A stretch of DNA of 64,000 nt, from positions 15,243 to 79,242 of the forward strand of contig JAHFUJ010000001.1 in assembly GCA_023265105.1 (NCBI GenBank). The letters are read 5' to 3'. The position numbers were made by a program. Source of the stretch: Acidobacteriota bacterium. Lineage in GTDB: Bacteria > Acidobacteriota > Vicinamibacteria > Vicinamibacterales > CAVVIG01. Positions 9,001-15,000 of the stretch are shown piece after piece (the first letter of the stretch is position 1; each line of letters begins with the position of its first letter).

Positions 9001-12000
9001 CGCGATCGGCGGTATCCCATCACTAACCGGTTTCGCGAACGCTGACGTCGCGCGAACGCTGCTCCTCCTGGAGGTGCGGCAACGTGGGGGAATGGCGAAA
9101 ATCAGATGGGCTTCTTGAGGCGTTCGAGAGGTGAAGCATGAAAGTGGCAACCATCGTCGGCGCGCGCCCGCAATTCATCAAGGCCGCCCCGGTAAGCAAG
9201 GCGCTGCGCAAGGGCCACCACATTGAAGTTCTCATTCATACGGGCCAACACTACGATGACGGTCTGTCCGCCATCTTCTTTGAGGAGTTGGAGCTTCCCG
9301 TGCCCGATTACAACCTGGGAATCGGCTCAGGCTCGCATGGCGCGCAGACCGGCGCGATGCTGGCCGGAGTCGAAGAAGTCCTGACGCAAGAGAAGCCCGA
9401 TTGGGTTCTGGTCTATGGTGACACCAACTCGACGATCGCGGGCGCACTGGCAGCCGCGAAGCTGCACCAGCGAGTCGCACACATAGAAGCCGGTTTGCGC
9501 TCCTTCAATAGAGCGATGCCGGAAGAGATCAATCGCGTGCTGACCGACCATCTCTCGGACCTGCTCTTCTGCCCTAGCCCGACAGCGGTTGAAAACCTGG
9601 CCGCAGAGGGCATCACAGGTGGCGTTCATCTCGTCGGAGATGTCATGGCCGATGTGTTACAGCAAACAATCGAACGAGCTCGCGAGTCGTCGACCATCTT
9701 GCAACGCCTGGAACTGAAAGAACAGGGCTATCTGCTGGCGACCATTCATCGCGAGGAGAATACTGATGACCTGGTCCACTTACGAGACATCCTGTCAGCT
9801 TTCAACCAGGTTGAAGAGACCATTGTTTTTCCGATTCATCCTCGAACCCGCAAAGCCCTTGCCCGGCTCAACGGCTCTGTTACCTTGACAGCCAAGCTAC
9901 GTCTGATTGATCCGGTGGGTTATCTGGATCTGGTGCGGTTGGCGCAATCGGCGCGTCTCATCCTGACCGATTCCGGCGGATTGCAAAAGGAAGCCTACTG
10001 GCTTGGCGTGCCCTGCGTGACGCTGCGCGATGAAACCGAATGGGTGGAAACTGTCGGAGCAGGCTGGAATATCCTGACAGGAGCACGGACAGAAGCGATT
10101 GTCGATGCGGTATCTTCGTTTCGACCAGCAATGACCAGACCAGCCCTGTATGGAAACGGCAAGTCAGCCGCGCGGATCAGCTACGCTCTCACGATGACCA
10201 AGTAGCCTCAGCGCGGGGCCCCACGTTATGAAACCTTCTGCTCTCAATCATTCTGCGCAGCATCTCGGCACACATTACAGACTGCTCTGGCGGATCACCC
10301 GTAATGAACTGACCACGCGTTATGCAGGGTCGATCTTCGGCCTTGGTTGGTCTGTGCTGACGCCGCTGATGATGCTCGCCATCTATGCTGTTGTCTATCT
10401 ACTGATCTTCCGTGTGCACGTGCCAGGTCTGTCATCGGCTCGGTACGTCCTGTTCATCTTTTCAGGGCTGGTCCCATTCTTGATGACCAGCGAAGCGCTC
10501 AGTATCGGTGTCGTTTCCGTCGTAGCCAACAAAGCAGTGCTGAGCAACACGGTGTTCCCTATTGACCTTGCCCCTGCCAAAGCTGTTCTGCTCAGCCAGG
10601 TCACCATGGTCGTAGGCATCGCCGTCATCCTGCTCGCGTCGATTCTCACACGCACACTACCATGGACGGTCATTTTGCTGCCCGTGCTGTGGGGTCTGCA
10701 TGTGCTGGCCCTTACGGGATTGCTCTGGATTCTGTCGCTGATCAATCTAGTTTTCCGAGACCTCCCGAACCTGATCAATCTACTCCTGATGATGATCATG
10801 ATTCTTTCGCCGATTGCCTATACTCCTGACATGGTGCCGGCAAGCTTGAAGCCCGTGCTTATCTTGAATCCCATGGCCTATTTTGTTGTCGCCTATCAGC
10901 AAACGCTGATTCTGGGCCGTCTACCTGGCGTTGGAAATGTGCTGGTACTGACCGTGCTTTCTGTTGGTCTGTTTGCCATCGGCGGATATTTCTTTGCGCG
11001 CGCCAAGCCGGTGTTCATCGACTATGTCTGAACGCAACGTCGTTCAACTGTCCGGCGTTGGGAAGATGTACAAGATTTTCCCCTCGCGCCTCGACCATTT
11101 CGTGGTTGCGCTGGGCCTGTCGCGCTTGATGCCGTGGCGTCGGATTGAGCCACATGAGTTCTGGGCCTTGCGCAACATTGACTTCGAGCTCAAAGCAGGC
11201 AGGCGTCTCGGCATCATCGGACGCAACGGCGCGGGGAAAAGTACATTGCTCAAACTCATCACCGGCAATCTCGCTCCCACTGAGGGACACGTCAGCGTCC
11301 AGGGTCACATTCAAGCTCTGCTTGAAGCCGGAGCGGGTTTTCACCCGGAATTTACTGGTTATGAGAATGTACACGCGGCACTCACGTACCAAGGCCTTAA
11401 TCGGGTGGAGATTGATAAGGCCACGGAAGACATCGCTGAGTTTACGGAGCTGGGAGACTTTCTCGGTCAGCCGTACAAAACATACTCCACAGGGATGATG
11501 GCCCGCCTCATATTTGCCGTCGCCACTTCGGTCAAGCCGAAAATCCTCATCATCGATGAAATCCTGGGCGCCGGTGACGCGTATTTTTTCTCCAAGTCAA
11601 TGGAGCGGATGAAGCGACTGGTACTCGAAAGCGGCGCTTCTGTGTTGTTGGTGTCTCATTCACTTGGCCACATCCTTCAATTCTGTGATGAAACGATCTG
11701 GATCGAGCGAGGAAGAATCATGAAGCGAGGGCAGTCTATGGGAGTGGTCAACGCCTATGAAGGTTTCATTCGCACTCTTGACGAAAGAAGATTACGAGGA
11801 AAAAACAGTAAGCTGAGATCAAAAACAGTTCCGTCATTTCTACTTGATAATTACGGTGACACGATCAGCTTCACATTTACTCTTCAGGGGTCTGCTGGGG
11901 CGAGTAGCGATATCTCAAACGTCCAGCTCATAAGAGATGGCCAGATTGAAGACGAGATTAGAGTGGGAGACGTACAGGACTCCACAACAGCCTTTTCAGC

Positions 12001-15000
12001 ATTTATCTTAGTAGACAACAGCCATTGGTCGAAACCAACGCGCAGTGATGGCGAACACTTCCGCAGCCTGACCGTGTCAGGACAGACCAGTTCTGTCGCC
12101 ATTGGGCAAGGGGTCTTTTACCTTTATGGCCTGGCAACTGACTCGGCGTACCACCTGCGGGTCAGATACCGTCACAGCTCATCATCACGCCTTGCGGTGA
12201 CAGTCGTGAAAAACGGCGAGGTGCTCTACAATCAACGTGATCTGCCAGGTTCCTCGTCGGAATGGACGGAATGCGAGCTCCCGCTGTCTGTGGCCCTATC
12301 CACTGGCGACACGAGTCGTCCACTGCCGGGAACCTCCAGTCTGGAATCTGCAGTCTCAACCGGTCAGGAGCCCCCGCCATCAGTTAGTAGCTCACTCCTC
12401 AACCCCGAATCGAAGACAAGGACGGTCCCGATGGTGCGGTGGCCGAGTGAAGGATCAATAACCATCGAGAAAGTGTCGACACTTGGCGAGGACGGGCGCG
12501 AACAGACCGTCGTGACCTCCGGCAGCACAATGACCATCTGTGTCTCTCTCCTCGCACACCGTGACGGGCAGTTTGATTGCGTTCCTGCCGTGACGCTTCA
12601 GCGGCTTGATGGTGTGTTGATCTCAAATTTCATTGGTCACGCTATCCCGCTGAAGCTGGTACGTGGGGAGCGCAAGACAGCACGTGTGACTATCCCCAGG
12701 CTTCTCTTCGGCGATGGCGAATACCGCCTCTCGGGCTCAATCTTCGAGAAAACTGTAAGCGAATCGTCCCGATACGACTTAGTCGCTCACGGCTGCGAAT
12801 TCAAGATAACGGGCAATGATTCGCTTGTATCAGGATTCGTCGTCCAACACCCTACATCTGAATGGGTGATCTCGTGATTGGAGAAGGACAACCAGGAGAG
12901 ATCTATTCGAGTGTCGGAGCCATCATTCCCAGCGGGCCGCCGTGCGCCTAAGTCAGACAACTAACGCAAGTGAGCGGCACGGTGGATCGGCCGCGCGCCT
13001 GTCAAAAGTGTGGTTGCTGCTGCCCGCGTTCAACGAAGCGGAGTCTTTGTCCCTCCTGCTGCCCAAGATCAAGAAGCTCGCGGATGAGGTGTTACTCCAT
13101 ACCATCGTGTGCGATGACGCCAGCACGGACGGAACACGCGATGTCCTTCGTGAGTTCGACGACGAACTGAGACTCGACATCATCGTTCACAAGATGAACC
13201 GCGGGCTTGGCGAAACCGTTCGTGACCTGTTCGAAAGGGTGAACGAACTGTGTTCCGCGGACGACGTCATCGTACGCATGGATTGCGACGACACGCACGA
13301 TCCCGCGATCATCTTGTCGATGATCGACAAGTTGAACCAAGGCTGCGACGTGGTGGTGGCATCGCGGTTTCAGCCCGGCGGCGGTCAGGTCGGCGTCAAT
13401 CGGTTGCGGAGCCTCCTGAGCACCGCCGCCAACCTGTTCATGAAGCTTCTGTTCCCCATTCGCGGGCTGAAGGAATACTCTTGTGGCTACCGGGCGTACC
13501 GGGCGTCGGCCATCAAAACCGCGCTGGCGGTCTACGGCAGCGACTTCATTCAACTCAAGGGGCTCGGCTTTTCGTGTACGCTCGAAAAACTGGTGAAGTT
13601 GAGAATGCTCGGCGCGCGATTCGGGGAGGTCCCGTTTGTGCTTCGTTATGACCGCAAGCTGAGCCAGAGCAAGATGCTTGCGAATATCACGACTTTTGGC
13701 TACATCACGCTGGCCATTCTCTACTATTGGCCCTGGAACGGTTGGCGAAACCATTACAAACACATTCCCAAGCTCGGAGAGTGTGGCTCAGCGGAGGGCG
13801 CTGCCAAGCCCCAATCTTGCCGGCTCTAACTCGGCAACATGAGCACCACGATGCCGCCGCGACGTGACGATCTGGTGAAACTCAACATCATCCACGAATT
13901 CGACCGTGTCCTTGCGATTGCTAATCTGAGAGGCTGCTACGGTCGCATTGCGGAGCGCTTCTATTCGCGGATGATCCGCGACGTCAAGGGAACGCGTATT
14001 TTGGACGCAGGATGTGGCTTTGGTCAGTTCAGCAGTTGTTGTGTGGCCCGAGGGTTGTCGGTACATTCCGTTGACATCGATGAACGCTCCCTCGCGGTCG
14101 CGCGAGACGTGTATCAACTGAAGTGCTTCAATGAAAGTACCTATCAGACGTCGTTGCCCGACAACTCCATCGATACGGTCGTCTCGAATGATGCTATCTG
14201 CCACTTCGACATCGAGCGCTTTCTTTGCGAGACCAGGCGGCTTGGTGCCCAACGGATCATCGTGCACGATTCAAATATCGAAAATCCCTTTCTTGTCGCC
14301 AACCGCCGTTTGATGCGGCACGAGGAGTACCGCTCGTACAGTGCGTTCGACGTCGTCAATCTATTCCAGGCTTCGGGCTACAAGTGCGTGAAGCTCGACT
14401 TCGTCAACTTCTTGAGCTTGCCTATCAGTGGCGGGTTTCAGAGACGACCCCTGCCGGTCGTCAGCCGATTTCCTGCGTTTGTTTACGCCATCGATTCGAT
14501 CATCGCACGCGCGCTGACGGTTTTTGCAGCCCGGCAGAAGTTGGCATTCAGGTTCGTGGCCGTGTTTGAGCGCGCATGACCGCGAGTGAACTGAGTGTGC
14601 TTAGGCAGGACCGTTCGACCACCGCCGCCGCGAACGGCATGAACAAAGTCGAGATTGCCACAGGCGAGCTCTATGGCTCCATCTGGAATCTCATGGATGA
14701 AGAGGCGTTCGCAACGTTTGCGGACGCCCATTGGAACAAGTTCCGCAACGCTGGGTTGGCCCAGGACTTTCTCAGGGGAAGGATTTGTCTGGATGCGGGC
14801 TGCGGCAGCGGCCGAGCCGTGCGCTCAATGTTGAAGGATGGGGCCGCGAAAGTGTATGCAATAGACATCGGCGACGAGTGCGTCAGAAACACGCGCGACC
14901 GGAACGCCCCTTGGCGCGATCGCCTCGTCGTTGAGCAAGGATCGGTGCTGGCGTTGCCGTTCCCCGACGACACGTTCGATTTTGTCCACTGTGACGGGGT

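Follow-up and report, generated by a model that had tools for sequence, protein, structure and literature searches.

In a stretch of 64,000 nucleotides from the genome of an Acidobacteriota bacterium (assembly GCA_023265105.1, contig JAHFUJ010000001.1, positions 15,243 to 79,242; hereafter the window), we find a gene for a Wzt protein, the ATPase of a transporter of the ATP-binding cassette (ABC) type, with a conserved folded domain inserted between its nucleotide-binding domain (NBD) and its C-terminal carbohydrate-binding domain (CBD). The gene, wzt, spans positions 11024..12877, stop codon included, and is an uninterrupted reading frame for a three-domain ATPase of 617 aa; coordinates refer to the window, and the features described below as parts of wzt or of its locus are all on the forward strand. 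That the product is a Wzt with this multi-domain architecture is almost certain. Long Wzt proteins of this kind form a conserved and widespread subfamily that is apparently undescribed: full-text literature searches for Wzt_C/PF14524 and for Wzt together with carbohydrate-binding modules (CBMs) returned no description of a three-domain Wzt, with an earlier mention being possible. The overall system is of a familiar type, and its new part is a conserved, uncharacterised domain at a mechanistically important junction.

The wzt product consists of five parts: the NBD (aa 1-255), a basic connector (aa 256-274), the middle domain (aa ~275-425), a linker (aa ~426-470) and the CBD (aa 471-617). Two Pfam domains are detected, ABC_tran (aa 49-179, 5e-23) and Wzt_C (aa 476-606, E 1.2e-11), and no Pfam family matches the ~220 aa that separate the two. 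About 215 residues (aa 256-470) lie between NBD and CBD, made up of a folded domain and a variable tether, and the short linker of the prototype is absent. The ATG at 11024 corresponds to the MSE/MSD N-termini of the aligned homologues; a longer, TTG-initiated reading is possible from 10964. The start codon region overlaps the stop of the upstream permease gene wzm by 8 nt (ATGTCTGA), which is the arrangement expected for translational coupling.

The middle domain (11846..12298) is, according to its predicted structure, an independently folding and family-specific beta-sandwich. The AlphaFold2 model of aa 258-436 has a predicted local distance difference test score (pLDDT) of 88.3 and a predicted template modelling score of 0.81; it is all-beta, with 11 strands over aa ~279-421. 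In an alignment of 47 homologues the domain shows no major gaps and its length is fixed, with 85-92 aa separating W226 from G315 and 93-102 aa separating G315 from W414. Four of its residues are invariant in this alignment (G315, W335, R347 and W414), and Q318, D319, S336, G361, F365, Y382 and R383 are conserved in at least 90% of the proteins. The recurring motifs are VGDvQD, WSxP, fRsL and vRYR. The model places VGDxQD and WSxP in loops between predicted strands, and outside the loop motifs W335, R347, Y382, R383 and W414 stand out as conserved aromatic or polar residues. The mean identity to distant members of the family is 35% for the middle domain, compared to 42% for the CBD, 66% for the NBD and 10% for the linker.

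An exhaustive phmmer search with the middle domain alone against 1.84 billion representatives (50% identity clusters) retrieved 69 clusters at E<=1e-3, and the full-length phmmer matches hold the domain at aa ~255-420 of proteins of 580-627 aa. Of ten shorter matches examined, nine turned out to be fragments truncated at the N-terminus with Wzt_C downstream, and the tenth has no Pfam match. Because of these matches and fragments, the middle domain appears to be confined, as far as sequence searches tell, to a position upstream of Wzt_C in the long-Wzt architecture. Its distribution is based here on the full-length search and the exhaustive phmmer search; a word-indexed search with the middle region alone or with its alignment, queries for which the seeding evidently does not work, found one fragment (P0001). 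When 41 members of the domain were compared with Pfam, no family was matched consistently, and this included the CBM models. We also considered a duplicated Wzt_C domain as its origin and rejected it, as hhalign gave a probability of 0.1% (E 0.56) and the Wzt_C match in Pfam covers only aa 476-606.

The whole architecture recurs in at least 120 clusters, which stem from Anaerolineae, Deltaproteobacteria/Thermodesulfobacteriota and soil metagenomes. The full-length search returned 5604 proteins at E<=1e-10 among 8000 candidates scored. The best 120 clusters contain proteins of 529-680 aa that are 41-85% identical to the query and cover 89-100% of it, and all but one of these clusters are annotated with both ABC_tran and Wzt_C. 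Furthermore, the identical protein is on record from an independent ENA metagenome contig and from an 85-kb NCBI contig. Two of the clusters, P0094 and P0111, are different long-Wzt clusters whose longest contig is in each case recorded as 276,999 nt (JGI 3300044580 Ga0485776_0000052, locus L006); should this be a single contig, two paralogous long-Wzt systems may be present in one genome.

Other long Wzt reading frames occur in a Selenomonadaceae metagenome-assembled genome (L007, 9974-11857, 628 aa) and in a Nitrospira metagenome-assembled genome (L045, 51-2024, 658 aa). As in the Wzt of the window, their Wzt_C domain lies far from the NBD, at about aa 470-630, and L007 also has AsnB-like and WecB-like neighbours. 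Their middle regions differ from the family described here, since that of L007 matches the middle-domain profile weakly (E 5e-4) and that of L045 does not match it. Thus, insertions between NBD and CBD may have arisen more than once or may have diverged strongly.

The C-terminal domain (12434..12874) is a genuine Wzt_C-type CBD. It matches PF14524 with 45.2 bits, compared to a cut-off of 30.4, begins after a conserved RWPSEGS motif and contains the invariant residues R527, D529, D585, F593 and W614. A profile built from 27 family members found the CBD of Aquifex aeolicus Wzt (8dky/6o14) as its sole match in the PDB (E 1e-4 to 1e-3). The AlphaFold2 model of the domain has a pLDDT of 89.8, and Foldseek ranks 1-17 are all Wzt CBDs, with template modelling (TM) scores of 0.60-0.73 and E-values of 5e-9 to 6e-7; they comprise structures from Escherichia coli O9a (2r5o), Klebsiella pneumoniae O12 (5hno/5hnp) and A. 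aeolicus (6o14, 8dky, 8dku, 8dl0, 8dne and 7k2t). The most conserved motif of the CBD, R-L-D-G at aa 527-530, aligns with loop 302-308 of the A. aeolicus protein, a loop that docks the CBD onto the hinge and H-loop helices of the NBD (PMC9445017). An earlier note on this DNA had described a Wzt ATPase with an extra middle domain and a linker ahead of a Wzt_C-type domain, and had likened the C-terminal region to the Wzt beta-sandwich. The first description agrees with Pfam, the AlphaFold2 models, Foldseek and the alignment of 47 homologues, and the second with the 17 best fold matches in the PDB, every one of which is a Wzt CBD.

The NBD (11024..11788; PF00005, E 5e-23) is the best-conserved part of the protein, with the 66% mean identity to distant homologues given above. 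Its motifs, as read from the sequence, are intact: Walker A GRNGAGKST, signature YSTGM, Walker B ILIIDE and H-loop VSHS. Phmmer aligned it to A. aeolicus Wzt (8dku/6amx) with E 3e-51 over aa 39-255 and to mycobacterial RfbE with E 1e-48, and the top NCBIfam match is galactan_ABC_ATP (Wzt/RfbE; 8e-58), which is under the equivalog cut-off of that model. The positions of the H-loop helix that are N202, K205 and I206 in A. aeolicus Wzt are G, L and Q here.

After the hinge helix follows the basic connector (11789..11845), which is rich in K, N, R and S and whose DNA, with a GC content of 0.35, is the most AT-rich in the window. The boundary between NBD and connector is spanned by the motif L252-x2-R255-R256-L257-x3-N261, whose five residues are nearly invariant, and in the AlphaFold2 model the connector has low pLDDT (51-63) and forms short helices. 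The earlier note had called the DNA for the middle part the most AT-rich of the window. This holds for its beginning: the 300-nt segments with the lowest GC content in the 64 kb (0.45-0.48) start at 11551-11801 and span the end of the NBD, the connector at aa 256-274 and the first strands of the middle domain. It does not extend to the middle domain as a whole, whose GC content of 0.53 is similar to the mean of the wzt gene (0.54). The AT-rich patch is thus explained by the conserved basic connector that it encodes and is not a foreign insertion.

Between middle domain and CBD lies a variable linker rich in S, P, T, A and E (12299..12433), with low identity and variable length among homologues. 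It is bracketed by the invariant W414 and W473, and in the 47 homologues the stretch between these two residues comprises 30-119 residues that are rich in A, S, E, P and G and 10% identical to the query. The linker DNA contains a direct repeat of 14 nt (12329-12356), in which GGAACCTCCAGTCT occurs twice with an 85% match. Differences in linker length among homologues could originate from such repeats.

We then turn to the genes around wzt. The gene order in the window is WecB/WbpI-like epimerase, wzm, wzt, GT2, MT1, MT2, a membrane protein of 446 aa, MT3, unk701, an AsnB-like gene and two genes of the short-chain dehydrogenase/reductase (SDR) type. To compare this locus with others, we used 12 other long-Wzt loci for which DNA is at hand (L002-L006, L089-L092 and L095-L098; counts below are out of 13 long-Wzt loci) together with two gene tables without DNA. 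A genome scan keyed on NBD motifs supplied a control set of 80 generic loci with short Wzt, of which 51 are at least 15 kb long and only L007 has a distant long form. A scan of metagenomes contributed nine loci, four of them with useful flanks. We observed a recurrent cassette with long Wzt, which comprises the WecB/WbpI-like epimerase, wzm, wzt, an MT3-type methyltransferase, one or more putative glycosyltransferases without a Pfam match and the AsnB-like amidotransferase.

The permease partner is encoded by wzm (10228..11031, 267 aa; PF01061 ABC2_membrane, E 1.9e-9). It is 57-82% identical to the wzm found in each long-Wzt locus with sequence available upstream of wzt, whereas the generic wzm genes match it with E 1e-33 at best, and that of L007 with 7e-50. 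Upstream of wzm, the low-GC island described below begins with a gene for a WecB/WbpI-like UDP-sugar 2-epimerase of 355 aa (9138..10205; PF02350, E 7e-106), whose orthologues are 64-83% identical and are located directly upstream of wzm in L002, L089, L090, L092, L096 and L098.

The three methyltransferases of the locus are MT1 (13839-14579, 246 aa), MT2 (14576-15427, 283 aa) and MT3 (16832..17680, 282 aa). All belong to the class-I S-adenosylmethionine (SAM)-dependent methyltransferases (Methyltransf_11, E 5e-14 to 1e-21, the latter value being that of MT3). The earlier note had proposed all three as candidates for capping the glycan. A methyltransferase in the vicinity of wzt is conserved in related loci, but close orthologues in other long-Wzt loci exist for MT3 only. 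None of the three resembles the terminator WbdD: the methyltransferase domain fills most of each protein of 246-283 aa and leaves no room for a coiled-coil ruler as in WbdD, and there is no kinase domain. Full-length orthologues of MT3 are present in L002 (62.5% identical), L089 (77%), L091 (61%) and L097 (45%). In L091 and L097 the orthologue directly follows wzt, in L002 it comes about 1.2 kb later with a transposase in between, and in L089 it is just upstream of wzt; L095 has only fragments, also directly after wzt. The junction between wzt and MT3 is rearranged in several relatives. In L002, a DDE_3 transposase and a helix-turn-helix gene directly follow wzt (11760-12856), in L089 the MT3 orthologue lies between the full wzm and a duplicated 3' fragment of wzm (6648-8655), and the fragmented orthologue in L095 (10512-10953) is possibly a pseudogene.

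Four genes separate wzt from MT3 (12942..16824; characterised by Pfam and NCBIfam scans and tblastn), namely GT2, which resembles polyprenyl-phosphate hexose synthases (12942-13829), MT1, MT2 and the polytopic membrane protein, which has no Pfam match (15484-16824). A tblastn comparison with the other long-Wzt loci yielded no counterpart for GT2, MT1 or the membrane protein and only weak ones for MT2; these four genes look lineage-specific. The block resembles the logic of extracytoplasmic glycan modification systems, in which a synthase for a lipid-carrier sugar is combined with a membrane transferase.

Downstream of MT3, unk701 (17677..19782) encodes a putative glycosyltransferase or polymerase of 701 aa. 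The full protein has no Pfam or PDB sequence match, but a distant relationship to Glyco_trans_1_2 proteins is seen in its core (aa ~180-560). This core gives one to four tblastn matches per locus in nearly all long-Wzt loci, with 29-52% identity in L002, L003, L006, L090, L092, L095 (three matches, in tandem), L096, L097 and L098, and no match in the 80 generic Wzt loci. A PF13524 (Glyco_trans_1_2) protein in L002 shares 27% identity with the core, and unk701 is probably a glycosyltransferase. An internal repeat was considered and rejected, as the N-terminal and C-terminal halves are not repeats of each other. The C-terminal ~60 aa look amphipathic or hydrophobic.

The next gene (19819..21753) encodes an AsnB-like glutamine amidotransferase of 644 aa (PF00733, E 4.5e-90, plus GATase_7), which is the most consistent neighbour of long Wzt apart from the transporter genes. 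It is followed by the two SDR-type genes for NDP-sugar epimerases/dehydratases (21757-22704 and 22701-23747; NCBIfam and Pfam epimerase matches), which have orthologues with 63-68% identity in L003 and L005. When comparing long-Wzt loci to generic Wzt loci of at least 15 kb, an AsnB-like gene is found beside wzt in 11/13 and 6/51 loci, respectively (Fisher p 1e-6), the unk701 core in 10/13 and 0/51 (p 2e-9), and an MT2/MT3-like methyltransferase in 10/13 and 3/51 (p 5e-7), with p-values that overstate independence because the long-Wzt loci are phylogenetically related.

Some of the related loci contain further sugar genes. WbpA/B/D/E-like genes stand beside the epimerase in L098, L002 and L096, and the window has the epimerase only. 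In L098 (3865-8935) and in L002 and L096 (3262-9182), one or more UDP-sugar dehydrogenases, a GFO_IDH_MocA oxidoreductase and Epimerase_2 are located upstream; genes for a hexapeptide acetyltransferase and for a DegT aminotransferase are additionally present in L098. The gene set of L098 corresponds to the WbpA/B/E/D/I pathway of Pseudomonas aeruginosa to UDP-2,3-diacetamido-mannuronic acid. By this analogy, the genes in L098, L002 and L096 suggest acetamido-uronic-acid chemistry, whose products the AsnB-like enzyme could amidate.

The glycan genes of the window form an island of about 9.1-23.7 kb (9100-23750) with a GC content of 0.54-0.59 and a GC content at third codon positions (GC3) of 0.60-0.75, compared to a GC content of ~0.65 in the flanks. 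It begins right after nadE (7393-9045; GC3 0.83) and ends after the second SDR gene, and the GC content is back to ~0.65 after 23.5 kb. This lower GC content suggests horizontal acquisition of the island. Scans of the whole window (1-64000) for tRNA genes and for Rfam families above the gathering score were both negative.

Having described the protein and its locus, we can compare them to known systems. WzmWzt of A. aeolicus (7K2T, 8DKU, 8DKY, 6O14) shares with the system of the window the NBD match, an ABC-2 permease partner, a C-terminal jelly-roll CBD and the pocket residue Asn N313. It probably also shares the way of working, namely capture of the cap followed by ATP-driven threading of the polymer. 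The A. aeolicus Wzt is about 395 aa long and has a 9-residue linker between NBD and CBD (residues 241-249), with the pocket being formed at the CBD-NBD interface (PMC9445017); the Wzt of the window, in contrast, adds a folded domain of about 170 aa and a flexible tether of ~45 aa. The Wzt proteins of E. coli O9a and of K. pneumoniae O3 and O12 include the best structural matches to the CBD fold (2R5O, TM 0.71; 5HNO, TM 0.68), and in these systems, too, a CBD fused to the transporter occurs near candidate capping enzymes; however, their NBD is joined directly to the CBD. The prototype terminators are large coiled-coil proteins, which are the WbdD methyltransferase with or without a kinase and WbbB with its Kdo-transferase module (PMC11231755), whereas the methyltransferases of the window are single-domain proteins of 246-283 aa.

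The explanation that we favour as a whole, with some confidence, is that of a long-subfamily Wzt in a Wzm/Wzt exporter that depends on a cap, with the middle domain as a possible accessory glycan-binding surface. The wzt product would be the ATPase subunit of an ABC exporter for a polyprenol-linked glycan. Judging from E. coli O9a, K. pneumoniae O12 and A. aeolicus, the finished chain in the cytoplasm would receive a cap at its non-reducing end, likeliest an O-methyl group added by an MT3-type enzyme. As in the same prototypes, a dimer of Wzt_C would then bind the capped end and license export. As the CBD sits on a tether of 30-119 residues, compared to the ~9-residue linker of A. aeolicus, it is probably the middle domain that occupies the position under the NBD. 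There, it may offer an accessory binding surface for a second glycan feature, and the tethered CBD would capture capped ends and deliver them. Prototype CBDs bind the cap, and that of E. coli O9a is functional even in trans (PMC9445017), so a long tether is compatible with function.

The individual parts of this explanation differ in how probable they are. By analogy with the prototypes, cap-dependent export through the CBD is likely. MT3 is the best candidate for the cap methyltransferase because of its conserved adjacency to wzt, and we tentatively suggest it as the capping enzyme. For the middle domain, the idea of a second recognition site is based on the beta-sandwich fold, on the conserved W, Y, R, Q and D residues and on profile matches to the CBM35 and GH98 modules. 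When the middle-domain profile was compared with the sequences in the PDB, all six matches were carbohydrate-binding modules: the C-terminal module of three GH98 enzymes (9H6F among them; E 0.011) and three CBM35 modules (2W3J, E 0.013; 2W87 and 2W46, E 0.84-0.9). The alignments cover four consecutive strands with the pattern Y-x-h-x-h-R-Y ... N-G ... P ... W that is typical of CBM6/35, but their E-values (0.011-0.9) are below significance. The middle domain thus resembles CBM35/CBM6 and the GH98 module in being all-beta and in this four-strand match, and it is unlike them in having no consistent Pfam CBM match and no CBM among its best structural neighbours. We consider it possible, short of probable, that the middle domain is a glycan-binding (CBM-like) module. 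A more specific version, which we regard as rather unlikely, is that of a new CBM family by which Wzt reads two signals: the tethered Wzt_C dimer would fly-cast for the cap, and the middle domain would check a second feature of the polymer. That feature might, with similarly low probability, be a uronic-acid repeat that is amidated or N-acetylated, to name one example, and that stems from the co-inherited AsnB-like and WbpI-like enzymes.

Several observations speak against the explanation that we favour, in addition to the low significance of the CBM matches and the relatedness of the loci behind the enrichment. When the model of the middle domain was compared to the PDB by Foldseek, the TM scores were 0.20-0.34 bar unrelated folds, with no CBM in the top 50, and against BFVD they reached at most 0.49 with no convincing neighbour; the same procedure gave TM ~0.7 for the CBD and mostly 0.2-0.35 for the middle domain. 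The cap pocket of A. aeolicus is formed by I299, L300, N313, T346, A348, H350 and W362 (PMC9445017). The corresponding positions here are V, T, N, S, S, F and L in a hidden Markov model alignment of ~20% identity that may be one residue off. The methyl-stacking W362 is thus replaced by Leu and H350 by Phe, and only N313 is kept of the pocket, so that the cap may not be a methyl group. Furthermore, a coiled-coil terminator, by which capped systems can usually be told, was not recognised at the locus, where no coiled-coil predictor was run. Lastly, some relatives lack expected neighbours: L005 has no methyltransferase within 10 kb, and one long Wzt of 595 aa (P0085, JGI 3300047160 gene table) has no wzm or glycan genes within 10 kb. 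The latter is flanked by two-component regulators and ndk.

The alternative that survives best, although it is unlikely, concerns the middle domain: it may be a platform under the NBD dimer, in the place that the CBD takes in short Wzt proteins, for protein-protein docking or regulation instead of a glycan binder. As such, it might, with no higher probability, inform the ATPase of the occupancy of the CBD, or bring in the MT3-type enzyme and the putative glycosyltransferase of the unk701 type and thereby tie export to synthesis and termination. The position of the domain directly after the NBD hinge helix, at a fixed spacing of 85-92 aa between W226 and G315, fits such a role, as does the finding that Wzm, Wzt, the unk701 core and MT3 travel as a cassette, which is expected of interacting partners. 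Moreover, the CBD still seems to dock on something, given that its invariant RLDG loop is aligned with the loop that docks on the NBD in A. aeolicus; however, the contact residues expected in the H-loop helix differ (G, L and Q for N202, K205 and I206). The middle domain has no CBM-like structural neighbour, but its only PDB profile matches are carbohydrate-binding modules, and its conserved Trp, Tyr, Arg, Gln and Asp residues are typical of sugar-binding sites, with two of the motifs in loops.

Export might also be independent of a cap, with Wzt_C and/or the middle domain binding internal repeat units and thereby raising the local substrate concentration. In that case, internal residues or nucleotide-sugar precursors, and not the chain end, would be the targets of the methyltransferases and of the AsnB-like enzyme, a detail to which we give the same small weight. 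This second alternative would account for the small, single-domain methyltransferases, for the absence of a recognised coiled-coil terminator of the WbdD or WbbB type and for the loss of the A. aeolicus methyl-pocket residues. The AsnB-like gene and the WbpA/B/D/E/I-like genes (L098, L002, L096) point in the same direction, namely to acetamido uronic acids and amides made at the precursor level. On the other hand, every capped system studied has an NBD-attached CBD that binds the terminal moiety. No CBD is present in the transporter of K. pneumoniae O1/O2, and this exporter accepts chains both with a terminal residue and without one (PMC11231755, PMC9445017). An MT3-type gene beside wzt in several lineages likewise argues for a cap. 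We therefore judge export without a cap to be improbable, albeit worth keeping in mind.

It is quite improbable that the middle domain is an inert spacer or a dimerisation module without ligand that is kept for structural reasons only. Such a module could have no detectable homology to any functional family and could diverge faster than the NBD (35% compared to 66% identity), but the fixed length of the middle domain is not what one would expect of a spacer, whose length should vary as that of the neighbouring linker does, and its four invariant and seven nearly invariant residues, loop motifs included, are retained across phyla. That the extra region is an assembly chimera, a frameshift fusion or a mis-called open reading frame, as might be suspected from the lowest GC content of the window at the junction of NBD and middle domain and as the earlier note had named for consideration, is practically ruled out, since the colinear architecture with its invariant middle-domain residues recurs in over 100 independent clusters drawn from various phyla and assemblies, the identical protein is found on separate ENA and NCBI contigs, the reading frame of wzt is uninterrupted and the AT-rich patch encodes the conserved K/N/R-rich connector.

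In the current model of cap-dependent export, which is based on A. aeolicus, E. coli O9a and K. pneumoniae O12, the CBD dimer sits directly on the NBDs and is attached by a linker of ~9 residues. It is exactly at this NBD-CBD junction that the long subfamily has a conserved folded domain inserted, together with a long disordered tether, and its geometry must therefore differ. The signature VGDxQD ... WSxP ... RYR ... RWPSEGS marks an unstudied glycan cassette, which is present in Anaerolineae, in Deltaproteobacteria/Thermodesulfobacteriota and in bacteria from soil, with a middle domain that is currently without a Pfam model. If the middle domain binds glycan, it would constitute a new CBM family and allow for a two-site licensing of export, in a geometry unlike the A. 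aeolicus pocket, which lies where CBD and NBD meet. If it docks enzymes instead, it would provide a physical link between the synthesis or termination of the glycan and its export.

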